From: Eledone cirrhosa
Lineage: Eukaryota
Reading direction: 5' to 3'
Assembly (NCBI GenBank): GCA_964016885.1
Contig: OZ024742.1
Coordinates: 351,044,001-351,108,000 of the forward strand
Length of the DNA stretch: 64,000 nucleotides
How positions within the stretch are numbered: position 1 is the stretch's first letter; every line of letters starts with the position of its first letter. The notes under the pieces were generated by a model. The model worked only from the letters and a program-made list of their open reading frames with translations. It searched no databases and was not told where the DNA came from. Of the stretch, positions 18,088 through 57,890 are shown piece by piece. The position numbers were made by a program, and so were the translations under genes.

Positions 18088-18320
18088 TTTCGTTTCTGAA
18101 TTTGTTTAGCAAGATTCTTTATCAGAAACCGTGTGTTGAAACCGATATTGTTATACTTTGGGAGGGTCATGTTGCCAATAAGAAACACACGCACCAGTTG
18201 CTTTCACTTCAATTTATTATAATAAATTTATAATTTATAAATTTACTATAATAAATTGAAGTGAAAGCAACTGGTGCGTGTGTTTCTTATTAGCAACATG
18301 ACCCTCCCAAAGTATAACAA
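18088..18320. mobile_element. PLE family D minimal hairpin in (TA)n
   Basis: 60-bp tail, then inverted arms ~18148-18232 and ~18247-18320; same sequence as the ends of 35621-37690. Confidence 0.9.
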
Positions 18321-18397
18321 TATATATATATATATATATATATATATATATATATATATATATATATATATATATATAGACATACATACATACATAT

Positions 18398-19216
18398 AAA
18401 AGGCAGAGATAATAACTCAGATTGATACCCTGAAATTAACAAGCTCAAAGTATAAATACTGACCATTATATAATAATATATGTAGTAATAAACAGAGTAA
18501 ATCGTGCGTCTGAAACTACGAGGGTTGAAATACCACGTTGGTTTGACTAAGTTAACCCGAAACTAAGGGAAATGCAAAACATATACTGACGGTCTCAATA
18601 ATTATTACATCTCCTCGATAGATTAGACATATAATGTCTCGCCCCGAGAAATGTGTTTGTAACAGATGATCCGTGGGCGTCATCAGCGAGAGAATTAGAT
18701 TAAATGTGACAGACAACTAAAGCTAAAAGCCACACGAATGAACATTTCACCCCGTGCGCTAGAAGTCAAAAGTGGTGTGAGTGAATAGGCTAGAAACAAT
18801 AGCTTTAATACACCCAACTTATAAGCTCACCTATTTAGGGAGCCGAAATACAAATAAAAGGCAGAGTTATAACTCATATAGTATAAATAGTGAGCATTAT
18901 ATAATAATATAATGCTCACTATTTATACTATATGAGTTATAACTCTGCCTGTTATTTGTATTTCGGCTCCCTAACTAGGTGAGCTTATAAGTTGGGTGTA
19001 TTTTACGGGGTCGATAAAATACAGTACCAGTAATGCACTGGGTAATTGCTGGCCTTGTGCCTAACGTAGAAACAATTATATAATAATGTGTTGTAATAAA
19101 CAGAGTAAATCGTGTGTCTAAAATTACGAGGGTTGAAATACCACGTTGGTTTGACAAATTTAACCTGAAGCAAACGGACATACAGACAATGTACTGACCG
19201 TCTCAATAACTATTAC
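18398..19216 (+). mobile_element. Partial tandem repeat (~460-bp period, pLTR-like), interrupted by an inverted duplication plus SINE 3' half
   Basis: 18398-18608 recurs as 18856-18908 plus 19075-19216; palindrome at 18807-19001; SINE 3' half at 19003-19078. Confidence 0.7.
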
Positions 19217-19313
19217 GTATATATAAGATTAGTTGGAAGTGATATTTTAGTAATTAAGTTAATTTTATAAATTTCTTATTTTACGTCTCTCATATATATA
19301 TATATATATATAT

Positions 19314-19497
19314 AGTTTTAATATTGATGAGATTCTACAGGACTAGAACTGTTTGATTCTTTAGAAATCATCAGGAATCTAAAGAATGAAACAGGTCTAG
19401 TCCTGTAGAATCTCATCTATATTAAAACTGTTATACTCTGAAATGTATTGAGTACCTTACTTACTGTGCTTACCTCCGATTCAACCCGGAATAACGT
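19314..19497. mobile_element. Minimal PLE hairpin in (TA)n centred on a hammerhead core
   Basis: Arms ~19314-19365 and ~19378-19429; ~65-bp tail; the two arms together give CTGATGA-tttctaaagaat-GAAAC-ag-GTC. Confidence 0.75.
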
Positions 19498-20849
19498 ATA
19501 TATATATATATATATATATATATATATATATATATATATATATATATATATATATATATATATATATATATATATAAAGTGGGAAATTTAGTCAAAGCAT
19601 AAAGTGTATGCTGAAAATATTTGTATTAACAGTTTAAGTTATTCGTGCATAACCAGTAAATTCCCTAGATTAAGTACGCATAAGTGACTCTGTGAAATAT
19701 ATATAGCTCTCCTTGCCTCTCATCATGTATATATATATATATATATATATATATATATATATATATATATATATACATATATGATACTCATATTGTCACA
19801 ACTTATATATAAGATAAACTTATATCAGTATCTCTACAGAATAAATACACCATATGAGTAAAGCTATACATGTGTACGAATATTAATATTATTTTTATTA
19901 TACAGACATATAAACATTCCATATTTGCGTATGTTTCTGTGAATTCATTTTGTCTAGTTCTATCATTCATTGCAACGATGGAAAATATTCCAAAGCGTGA
20001 AGAGTTTTAAGTTTTATACGAACTCTCCAGGAATATTAAACCTCTATTTTGCACGCCCCTTTCCACAATTCACCATGTTTGTAGGACAATTTCGATCATA
20101 AATTTGTTTCGCATAACATTCATTTGTAATCCTTCATAAAAGTATCATTACTCCTATGATATATATGAGGTTAGCCCTCCCTAAACCTATCTTGATCGCA
20201 GTATACACGATTTATTTCTAGTTTCTTATTGTCTAAATCTGTCTCGTCGTTCAGGCACACGAAGTCGCAGTAAGATCGTGATATGCTCGTTTTAGTTACT
20301 TATCCTCTCACAACACTTCATATATTGCCCATGAACCCGACCATGCAACATCGCTATTCGAACACATATTTCAAGCAACCAAATCTTCCCCCTTTGTTGG
20401 CAGCTGTAGTGGTAACCTTTATAAAATCAGTGACTGCATGTACACCTACGAGTGTGTTTGTGTCTCTGTGTTTGTATTATTTTTAAGCTACTTTTAAGAT
20501 ATCTTCTAATTCAAACAATTGAATTCACAATTTATTTCTATTATTGGAAACCAATATTAACACAAATCAGAAACCAATATTTAAGTTTATATATGTAATA
20601 TTCATTAGTAATTACGCATCATATTGGAGTAATTGTTTAGATCAATGGCCCCCGGGTTTACCAGATTTGTGTTTATTTAAAGCTCTTCCATTTGCATCCA
20701 TCCGCTTCGTTACTTTCCTTAAAACCAGTGAACCATGAATTACTGGAATACTATATTTTACATTTACAGTGTGAAGTGCAAAATATATAGATTTGGCTGT
20801 TATTTTTCCTTCGGCCGCAGCATTTAACAGTCCTGACAAGGAAGCCTGT

Positions 20850-54692: not shown

Positions 54693-54878
54693 AATTGTTT
54701 CTACTTTTGGCACAAGGCTAGCAATTATCCCAGTGTATTACTGGTACTTTATTTATCGACCCCATAAGGATGAAAGGCAAAGTTGACCTCGTCGGGATTT
54801 GAACTGAGAGCAGAGGGTTGGAACCAATACGATAAAGCATTCTATCCGACGTTCTAACGACTCCACCAATTCGCTGCC
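54693..54878 (-). mobile_element. Main-family SINE copy
   Basis: Reverse complement of the SINE body, with a variant head. Confidence 0.85.
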
Positions 54879-55129
54879 ATGGCGGCGAATTTCTATTGAT
54901 AATGAAAGCGCAGGTATAATGAAAACAAAGTTAAAACAGAGGTTCAGAGATATAATTGCGGAAACATATTTGCAACATGAATGGAAAATGTCGACATCAA
55001 GGAATTGTATAAAGGTTTTCCTTAGAATTCGAAACAGTTCTAATGTGAAGAATTGTGAAAACTAGTTTGACCCAATCCTCACCACTAACATGAATGTTGT
55101 ACGACAAATATATCACGATATGCGTTAGA

Positions 55130-56345
55130 TCCGGGTATGATTGTGTTTTATTTACTTATCTGTTTATTTATTTATTTGTCATTAGTTGTTTGTTTGTGTG
55201 TCTGATTTGTTTTGTTAGTTTGGTTTCTGTGTGTCTGTATGTCTTCATGTTATCCTTCATTACTAGTTGTGATGTTACTATTCCACTCATGTTTTCTGTT
55301 TAATTTTGTTTGGGTTCGTTTTTGTTTGTCGCTTCTGTGATTTGTCTGAGCATTGCATCTTTTCTGTGTGTGGATATAATTTCTATCTCTATATTCTATA
55401 TATGCCCATATGTTATATTTTGGCGTGTTGGTGGAGTACTGATGCGTTTCTCCCATCCTGGAGTTCTTACCAGTGTTCACTTATCATTTCTCCAATGCTA
55501 CAGGCTGTTTCACCAATGTATGTCGTATTCTTATTCCTACACTGTCCTTCAGTACATCTTATGATATGTACTACGTTCCTAGTTTTGCAGTTAGTTGCGG
55601 TTTTTGCTTGCTGCATATGGGTTTTTTTTAAATGTGTATGTTTTTGCTAATTAGGGTTTTTATGAGAATACTTGGTCTTTCAACTATCTTAATATTTTAT
55701 TTGAGCTTGTCTAGGGTCCTTCTAAATCTGTAAGCTAGTTCGGCTCTAGGTGTTGGATGGACGAACGTTACACTATAGTATTTATTGCTATCATAACTTG
55801 GGTTGATTTTATTTGGCTTATCCATTCTATTCTGTTCCAAACTTTGCTCCTATACATGGGGCAAGTCCCATTTGCCTCATTTTAAAAATATTTGCCCATT
55901 TGGTCCTGGCTCCTTTATACACTCTCATCTTCTCTCTCTGATTTTAGTCTGAGAACTGTATGCGGTGGATGAAGTGTTGTATGTGTCTCTCTAATTCTTT
56001 GGGGCTGCACATGCGGCACACGTTCTTTATCACTCTTACTAAGTCTACAATCAGTATATTGATAATTATGTGATCCGAAACAGGTGAGATTTAGTGGATC
56101 AAGTATTTGTGGACATGCGATTGGCATAATGCAAATTTTGTGTCTAGTACGGCTAATATATGGTTGGGGTGTTTCGTTAGATATTAAATAGTAACTTTAA
56201 TATTCTGGTGGATGGAGTTAGCTATTTGCTGGATGTTTTCCAAGATGTTCTTCTCTAATTCCTGACTGTTCTCCTGTGGGGGTGTTTTTACTACGGTTAT
56301 GTCATCTACATAGTCAAGGTTATAAAATTGTCGTCTAATTGTTCC
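55130..56345 (-). pseudogene. Decayed family D-related PLE RT/GIY-YIG
   Basis: Collinear with 36225-37380 (YVDD at ~56300, CTEGQCRNKN..YIGETA, KLNRKHEWNSNITT), with many indels. Confidence 0.85.
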
Positions 56346-57238
56346 TTAAACCTTCTGTCTTAAGTGTTCTGCCTTGTGTTGATGTGAGGTCGCATTGCCT
56401 GGATGTAGTTTGGCAGACTGTCAACAGACATTTTGCCAGAATTGTCTGTTGGAAAACATACAATCTCTCCATTTTCTGAGCCCTGCATGAGCTTACGCAA
56501 CCCATTTGCATGTGTGCGTATTTCCACATAAACACACACACAGTGTATGTATATATATATATATATATATATATATATATATATATATATATATATATAT
56601 ATATATATATATATATATATATATATATATATATATAAATATATATATAAATATATATATATGGTTATGACAGTAACATTAGAGTTATTCGACAATATAT
56701 TAACTACAACAGGTATGCAGCTTTCAAAGTAGCCATAGTTATATATTTCACTTATATAAACCAAAGTGACTCAAATTGTTACATTGACAGTTTTATCTGA
56801 GTATTAATTTGGTGTGGTTCTTCTACACACATAACTACACATTAGTCGTGTTTTGATTTACAAGAAAACGCTTTCGTCTATCTCTAACTGGAAGTTGACA
56901 TAAAACCAGACCTTTCAAAGCAATAATTACATATTAAAAGACACCATTACAATTTAAGCTCCTTAGACAAACGCTGTTCTTTCAGAAAACAAACAAACAA
57001 AGACAAGCCACGATAAAGTTTATTAGATAGGAATTTTGAATATATGTGTTTAGGTGAGGGGGACATTTACGTTTCAAAAATCCCATTTGAGAATTGCTGG
57101 TTTCTGGCAGAATGTAAAAATACAACTGTTATGAATAAATTATTATTCTCCTTACATACATTTATATATATATATATATATATATATATATATATATATA
57201 TATATATATATATATATATATATATATATATATATATA

Positions 57239-57890
57239 TTGTTATACTTGGGGAGGGTCATATTTGTGTAATAATATTGCCAGAGTTAATAACAGAACAC
57301 ACTCACTGTTTGGTTGGTTTTCGCTTCTATGTCTTTTATAACGGTTAATTTAAATTATTCGTTCCTCAATGTTACCATTGACAGACCAACGGTCAAAAAT
57401 ACATATATAATATAGACACAAACACATATATATATAGTCTAACAAAGTTATTTCGTTGCACATCTGCAACATCGTCAGTAGTGCTATTCTGTTTCCTCCT
57501 GTTGTATTGTACGCCTACGCCATCTTTATTTAGTCTGTTTATTTATTTATATATTTATTTATGCCTTCTTCTCTGCGCATGCGTTTGCGTGTGTGTATTG
57601 TGTTTGGGTGACTGTGTATTGGTTAGTGTATTCTATCTTAGTTTACTAGTGTGTGTTTATATATGTTAGACTATATATATGTGTTTGTGTCTATATTATA
57701 TCTGTATTTTTGACCCTTGGTCAGTCAATGGTAACATTGAGGACCGAATAAATTAAATTAACCGATATAAATGACACAGAAGCGAAAACCAACGAAAGAG
57801 TGAGTGTGTTCTGTTATTAATTCTGGCAATATTATTACACAAATATGACCCTCCCCAAGTATAACAATATTTGTTTCGACACACGATTTC
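57239..57890. mobile_element. Family D-like foldback
   Basis: Arms 57239-57444 and 57664-57868; short tail; minus-strand CTGACGA-t-gttgca gatg tgcaac-GAAA at ~57451-57478. Confidence 0.85.

Follow-up and report, generated by a model that had tools for sequence, protein, structure and literature searches.

Penelope-like elements (PLEs) carry a tail that sits on one inverted arm or at one end only of the insertion (PMC3846280, PMC8557442). The origin of the inverted arms and of the one-sided tails is called open in PMC8557442, and the excerpt of PMC2377424 is confined to PLE structure. In vitro, the PLE protein of the anole nicks and extends both target strands and starts at two internal sites that bracket the tail; a dimer is predicted, and the later steps are left unvalidated (PMC11167929). 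Here we describe PLE insertions in a 64,000-nucleotide stretch of Eledone cirrhosa DNA (contig OZ024742.1, positions 351,044,001 to 351,108,000; the whole of it is called the window), which comes from a 3.0 Gb genome rich in (TA)n and holds several PLE families. Our main subject is family D, whose arms end at one of two fixed sites, nearly always one of each kind per insertion. The reading we favour, with a probability of roughly 0.65, is twin priming programmed by position, in which both primers start at internal sites of a single RNA; the overlap would then be re-copied and the inner ends united by microhomology-type joining.

Family D arms end at two fixed sites

Tail-less arms of family D end as AAGTATAACA|ATAT(AT)n at 18319/20, 37689/90 and 52544/45, and the end of a D-like copy at 57239/40 is the reverse complement of the same string. 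This position is site 1. Tailed arms run on as ATATCGGTTTC... for another 59–60 nt, the tail, which in the insertion at 35622–37689 lies on the minus strand (35622–35681) and extends from site 1 (ATAT, 35678–35681) to site 2. Two arms of a second family, C, stop at TAAT(AA)|ATAT at 33749 and ~52587, 89 nt short of the tailed end at 35554. All four D ends and both C ends are present as the first-pass annotation of the window had claimed when it proposed that tail-less arms stop at a fixed internal ATAT.

The family D insertion just mentioned consists of a 5′-truncated direct arm with tail on the minus strand (35622–37570), its outer end at site 2, and an inverted tail-less arm on the plus strand (37568–37689), its outer end at site 1; the arms share the inner microhomology CAA (37568–37570), not the aacc placed earlier at ~37570. 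A palindromic insertion occupies 18088–18319, with its tailed end on the left (site 2, 18088) and its tail-less end on the right (site 1, 18319), between (TA)n flanks at 18012–18087 and 18320–18377. The minimal insertion (52482–52544) joins a tail stub of ~34 nt to a tail-less arm of ~37 nt over TTAT(T), with zero overlap between its arms. A lone arm on the plus strand ends at site 2 (53646–54005), and the D-like insertion at 57240–57890 has a tail-less arm at 57240 and a tailed arm whose end, at 57890, is a minor ATATA site. The window copies are independent insertions, as their differing inner junctions and flanks indicate, and the earlier claims that copies are independent and that their inner fold-back points vary both hold.

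Across the genome, site 1 (AACA|ATAT) accounts for 13,652 exact ends and site 2 (CGAA|ATAT), ~60 nt further on, for 15,365, a ratio of about 1:1. Read-through of site 1 into the tail has 12,083 exact matches; the reversed-pattern control gave 0 for each of these searches. The 25-mer immediately upstream of site 1 occurs 26,110 times; for ends within the tail the evidence comes from sampled loci. To avoid selecting on the site itself, arms were also anchored on a hammerhead-like core ~175 nt upstream. In a first set of 30 arms, 18 had their end at site 1, in a few cases with an irregularity of 1–2 bases, 11 at site 2 and one elsewhere; in a second set of 19 the figures were 9, 8 and 2. Combined, 46/49 anchored arms end at site 1 (27) or site 2 (19). 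Family C arms, for which the anchor lay only ~20 nt upstream of site 1, ended at site 1 in 19/30 cases and at the tail end in 11/30. D-like tailed arms stop either ~60 nt (14/30) or ~46–50 nt (11/30) from site 1, on 2–4-nt TA matches, the remainder being two tandems and three others; none of these 30 shares the ATATA end seen at 57890. Tails differ in length, from ~35 nt in a third family, E, through ~46–60 nt (D-like) and ~60 nt (D) to ~89 nt (C). The fixed ends themselves are confirmed as real and lie far beyond chance.

One end of each kind per insertion

Pairing was scored in 80 regions fetched around listed anchors, together with seven reused loci. Among 54 two-armed family D insertions, 51 combine a tailed with a tail-less end (46 recognised by BLAST and 5, with stubs of 6–14 nt, by eye); one is tailed at both ends, none is tail-less at both, and two have one end elsewhere. 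Against an expectation of 0.5, one-of-each in 51/52 has P=1e-14. About 30 insertions with a single recognisable arm were excluded from these counts, as was the pair L097 and L098, tailed and tail-less, with 3.9 kb of other sequence between them. That intervening sequence (L187:712-4601) contains LINE-like open reading frame (ORF) fragments and separates two full-length family D arms lying head to head.

Position lists, which overlap the pairing sample and are not additive to it, gave one-of-each in 38/44 and, for head-to-head neighbours, in 44/49; on fetching, exceptions turned out to be internal tandem junctions (L068, L171), separate neighbouring insertions (L172–L174, L280) or, in two cases (L118, L279), insertions truly tailed at both ends. 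A prospective test on 20 regions around tandem junctions yielded one-of-each in all ten insertions that had two arms and both outer ends readable; the remaining regions had only one arm, were incomplete or contained gaps, and in one of them the stub was degenerate. The rule extends to family C (11/11), to D-like insertions (12/12, namely those of 30 tailed arms with a clean inverted partner within 1.5 kb, the complex L246 excluded) and to family E (3/3). Some insertions consist of one tail-less arm flanked by (TA)n at either end.

Target-site duplications were scanned for in 57 insertions, in which (TA)n hides duplications, and a single clear case of ~70 nt was found (L108). Its two apparent copies lie at L108:528-597 and 1117-1190, compared with the 8–10 bp described for rotifer PLEs; L065, L117 and L224, whose (TA)n flanks are interrupted, may conceal similar duplications.

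Both sites are internal and are probably chosen by position first

The tailed end is not the true 3′ end of the RNA, since genome-wide 466 tandem copies continue through site 2 into the ORF (reversed control 0). In full-length partial tandems (L068, L175, L191–L210) the tail continues ...CAGAAACGAAATATCGTAAG into the ORF. The proposal that one target end primes at the RNA 3′ end is therefore rejected. The ORF starts 5′ of site 1, the tail encodes N-terminal codons in the tandem copies, and both sites, each reading AATATCG, are within ~82 nt of its start in that arrangement. In family C, too, one tandem (L096) continues past the tail end, where the identity to the target is TAT. Elsewhere in the genome, a 12-copy tandem array with a 46-nt unit derives from the family D junction between site 2 and the ORF (G000:C1:132947045-132947576).

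The match of site 1 to (TA)n is ATAT in D, D-like and C copies and about 7 nt long in E; overall, identity to (TA)n is 4–7 nt at site 1 and 2–4 nt at site 2. A transcript of a copy ending at either site would enter the flanking (UA)n, and this may often give one primer a long homology. The annealing of a target end to the internal ATAT had been put forward as the selector of the site, but homology alone does not pick it, because internal (TA)n tracts of 8–23 nt are almost never used, and this candidate is rejected. No arm out of 30 ends in the (TA)4-5 tract directly after the hammerhead-like core of family D, and none of 30 family C arms ends in the TATATAT tracts of its tail. One D subfamily variant has, genome-wide, eight copies with at least 17 TA bases after this core, of which five are read-through expansions and three true ends. 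Position thus appears to come first and homology second in the choice of sites. RNA folds around the sites revealed no structure common to D, D-like and C; the site-1 region of family D is mostly unpaired.

In two insertions both arms share one pattern of edits

The arms of an insertion have subfamily variants in common, and in most pairs the divergence within the pair is below the median between insertions. Two family D insertions, L068 and L112, are in addition A-to-G hyperedited, a signature of the ADAR type that would implicate such an enzyme. In L068, 42/42 A-to-G changes are common to the inverted arm and to the tandem copy upstream; in L112, 25 changes are common to both arms and 3 are arm-specific. 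L068 and L112 do not have the same pattern, and in the 3-Gb genome either pattern is present at exactly two places; no further edited family D arms were found among the sampled loci. These genome-unique barcodes, on both arms in 2/2 edited insertions, point to one template RNA. Hyperediting stops 150–175 nt before site 2 in both insertions (L068:5325-5805 and 7108-7587; L112:543-1280), and the unedited AT-rich last stretch is possibly a protein footprint or a required cis element (n=2).

Dual priming by two RNAs, one for each target end (one from a tailed and one from a tail-less source, or a pair of RNAs carried by a dimer), would explain long overlaps without any re-copying, and dual priming is named for L1 in PMC2837659. 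It is nevertheless quite improbable, in view of the subfamily variants and edit patterns that the arms share, and it offers no reason for the one-of-each rule.

A highly improbable alternative is that the ends are inherited or secondary, arising by duplication, by copying of an inverted source, by later deletion of a tail into (TA)n or as an assembly artefact. A few local duplicates do exist (L183/L184, L172, L174), and one stub-plus-stub mini-junction recurs 35 times over a 3-nt overlap, but eight of the ten copies of it examined have unrelated flanks. Thousands of ends differ in flanks and inner junctions, which rejects duplication of one insertion; the edits are sense A-to-G in both arms and not T-to-C in one; and that decay should take precisely one tail from each insertion, and do so in four families, is not to be expected.

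Arm geometry and inner junctions

Among the 51 pairs the tail-less arm is the longer in 27 and the tailed arm in 15, the two being equal within 15 nt in 9; the equation of the tail-less arm with a short inverted arm, made at first, is accordingly not supported. In 9/51 pairs the tailed arm does not reach beyond the tail, and three of these arms stop at 51–58 nt, just before site 1. Arms overlap in 42/51 pairs and fail to do so in 9/51. Near-perfect palindromes number 9/51 against 2.2 expected, a figure reached in 0/5,000 shuffles; the excess suggests that hairpin steps contribute.

These palindromes, together with hairpin-like junction inserts (e.g. L110) and the shared barcodes, would suit a single priming followed by fold-back, in which one cDNA copies itself and joins the other end of the target at the ATAT to which it happens to have extended; PMC3846280 argues for self-priming. 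Such a scheme predicts many pairs of the same type, whereas 1/54 tailed plus tailed and no tail-less plus tail-less pairs were seen. Simple fold-back fails because a truncated tail-less cDNA cannot template a tail, and the tail-less arm is the longer in 27/51; the 9/51 pairs without overlap speak against it as well. Improbable as an account of its own, pure fold-back is largely refuted as the sole route, but it may supply the overlap as a sub-step.

Microhomology of at least 3 nt occurs at 19/61 inner junctions compared with 20/249 simulated ones (p=1e-5). Joining by microhomology, as first proposed, is borne out to this extent; another 13/61 junctions instead carry inserts of at least 5 nt (8/249 simulated), several of them locally templated. 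Sixty-one of 62 junctions were scorable. Four long overlaps belong to a palindrome that is naturally present and rich in AT, and the number of inserts may be too high because of old mismatches. We take the signature to be consistent with microhomology-mediated joining of the polymerase-theta type.

A model for two-site priming and its competitor

Both insertion ends have, by their sequence, the polarity of target-primed cDNA. In the favoured model reverse transcription of a single RNA would be primed by both cut target strands, each at a site of its own. The PLE protein, possibly as a dimer, would nick both strands and hold the RNA such that position sets both sites, as the in vitro work on the anole element also suggests, and 2–7 nt of pairing with (TA)n would set the exact base within the site. 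Either cDNA could give rise to the long arm, and the site-2 cDNA would occasionally halt within the tail. Both arms would derive from one RNA segment, as the edits demonstrate for two insertions. The overlap of the arms would result from re-copying, in which either a strand is displaced or the long cDNA folds back and is caught by the stub of the other primer. The inner ends, which bear the corresponding signature, would be joined by microhomology or templated-insertion end joining. Two-site priming, as first proposed, is supported as the most economical reading; as a programmed form of twin priming it needs the amendment that 42/51 pairs overlap, unlike those of L1, so that re-copying must be added.

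Several observations weigh against twin priming. In the genomic products, two-site priming and two-site cutting are indistinguishable. Two genuine insertions are tailed at both ends (L118, L279) and two have one end elsewhere (L129, L137). The overlapping pairs and the palindromes demand the extra re-copying step and fit hairpins. The edit barcode comes from two insertions, in one of which, L068, the two used sites lie ~4 kb apart on the tandem; shared edits could also reflect conversion after insertion, although arm-specific differences persist in most pairs. Very short stub-plus-stub insertions could be later deletions of palindromes. As regards pairing, the start sites of the anole element are reported to lack homology to the DNA that is cut (PMC11167929); the 5-nt ATATA in the D-like tail is unused in 30/30 arms and the tailed ends split over two main positions, and pairing may therefore be minor.

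Cutting at two sites is what endonuclease resolution would entail. A hairpin or double-stranded cDNA extending past both sites would be a substrate for the GIY-YIG endonuclease that the element encodes; one strand would be cut at site 1 and the other at site 2, and host repair would join the cut ends to (TA)n. This would explain one-of-each, the shared barcodes, the palindrome excess and the fact that either arm can be long; both sites resemble AT targets, endonuclease-mediated tail resolution has been proposed (PMC8557442), and tail-dependent cleavage by the Drosophila enzyme is cited in PMC11167929. However, it requires a non-target primer and two extra joins, and single-arm insertions start at either site, like simple products of target-primed reverse transcription. 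We regard it as unlikely, mainly because target-linked cDNA in vitro begins directly at the two sites (PMC11167929).

A broader proposition, to which we give slightly less than even odds, is that PLEs with an endonuclease, whatever their clade, normally integrate by obligate twin priming: an asymmetric dimer of the reverse transcriptase (RT)/endonuclease protein would use one RNA with one programmed site per strand, and the (TA)n families would have evolved AATAT for pairing. If this is true, tail and inverted arm are two faces of one reaction.

The PLE families and other repeats of the window

The family D region of the window (35622–37689) includes a truncated ORF on the minus strand (36225–37586) with an RT palm (YVDD), a CX4CxxC linker and a GIY-YIG endonuclease with CCHH, motifs identified by eye against the text of PMC8557442; in Pfam it matched RVT_1 at E=7e-4, below the cut-off, and gave no GIY-YIG match. 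An intact ORF at L224 encodes 1,265 aa with YVDD, VVY..C..C..YIG and two further H (CCHH). Family D thus has the single ORF of endonuclease-bearing (EN+) PLEs, RT plus a C-terminal GIY-YIG carrying CCHH, together with partial tandems (pLTRs), an inverted 5′-truncated arm and a tail. The linker ahead of the endonuclease is CIDKKCITC in D and CDRPNCGIC in E, within the CX2-5CxxC pattern of Neptune and Nematis; CX4CxxC and CCHH are given as features of these clades in PMC8557442. By linker and motifs D and E would be of Neptune/Nematis type, either clade being possible.

Intact family D ORFs (about 1,265–1,320 aa) occur at L224:1198-4992, L215 and L230, and this family may still be active. They have a long Asn/Thr/His-rich insert ahead of the RT, resembling the N-rich inserts of rotifer PLEs. 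The pLTR contains a hammerhead-like core on the minus strand (35843–35872: CUGAAGA, stem GUCAC/GUGAC and GAAA), recognised from its motifs and from stem II in the fold; an Rfam search of the family D pLTR for a hammerhead ribozyme gave no match. Diverged, older relatives of family D, at 75–84% identity, lie at 55244–56313 and 53646–54005.

Family C is represented by an insertion on the plus strand (33749–35554) made up of an inverted tail-less arm (33749–33965) and a direct arm with an endonuclease fragment (33945–34400), site 1 at 35466–35469 and the tailed end at 35554, and by a short insertion at 52587–52799, tail-less on the left and tailed on the right. Its linker is CNCRNRADC (CxCX5C); it has PCDLC, SDKT and RWR motifs and a (TA)n target and is without CCHH. 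By linker, DKT, an RWK-like motif and (TA)n target it probably belongs with the Hydra clade. Family E has an element on the minus strand (15588–18008) with RT, CX4CxxC linker and GIY-YIG (E=1e-6), its tail-less end at 15588; other copies are found at 32758 (tailed), 38578 (tail-less) and 52311 (tailed). Families C, D and E are joined end to end through common (TA)n tracts (33624–38630, 51968–52856), and it is likely from this chaining that each insertion leaves new (TA)n targets.

Many other inverted-repeat elements (4132–4774, 9140–10480, 13928–15271, 18807–19002, 23330–23762, 24021–24317, 51626–51965, 52923–53230) may include further PLE families or miniature inverted-repeat transposable elements. 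A SINE-like repeat of ~190–200 nt is present in many copies (7623–7803, 13059–13561, 19003–19086, 26998–29354, 54690–54809, 59357–59555), with a 7-copy tandem at 27936–29354, and minisatellite arrays with units of 37 and 25 nt lie at 41720–43917 and 43918–44961.

Comparison with known systems

The one-sided tail (PMC3846280, PMC8557442) and two in vitro start sites (PMC11167929) are already published. The literature we searched contained no explicit twin-priming model for PLEs, pairing rule, target homology at both sites or edit barcode, and older papers may say more. The ends of family D are thus a known feature, the PLE tail, to which a new quantitative rule and mechanistic evidence are added. 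A near-strict rule of one end per site in four families and at least two clades, combined with editing barcodes, ties tail and inverted arm to one reaction; the pairing counts provide numbers that are testable with the existing in vitro assay, and ADAR-type edits fixed in genomic copies can act as template barcodes for mechanisms of retrotransposition.

With described PLEs the insertions share a tail and an inverted pLTR; published tails measure 30–40 nt compared with ~35–89 nt here (PMC3846280, PMC8557442). Those papers invoke self-priming or endonuclease resolution, whereas here the pairing is quantified and near-strict. Closest is Poseidon of Anolis carolinensis (PMC11167929), in which two internal sites at the start of the ORF likewise bracket the tail, both strands are nicked and extended and a hammerhead lies upstream, where family D has its hammerhead-like core. 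In contrast to the lack of start-site homology to the target in the Poseidon excerpt, there are here 4–7 nt to (TA)n at site 1 and 2–4 nt at site 2; that excerpt makes no statement of one site per end and no link to inverted arms, and the present families probably belong to other clades.

In L1 twin priming (PMC2837659, PMC11702581) the second strand similarly primes internally on the same RNA, with microhomology, an inverted arm and an end-joined inner junction. It is occasional, its internal site varies and its first primer uses poly(A), whereas both sites here are fixed and internal; L1 fragments abut within ~1–10 bp, with internal deletion or duplication, whereas only 9/51 pairs here are without overlap. 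The L1 hallmark of two inverted fragments from one RNA is found here in the edit barcodes of 2/2 edited insertions, and extension of both target 3′-OH ends on the RNA, shown for the anole element (PMC11167929), would be expected here as well. The mechanism of family D works like twin priming, but we do not file it as a form of the L1 reaction.

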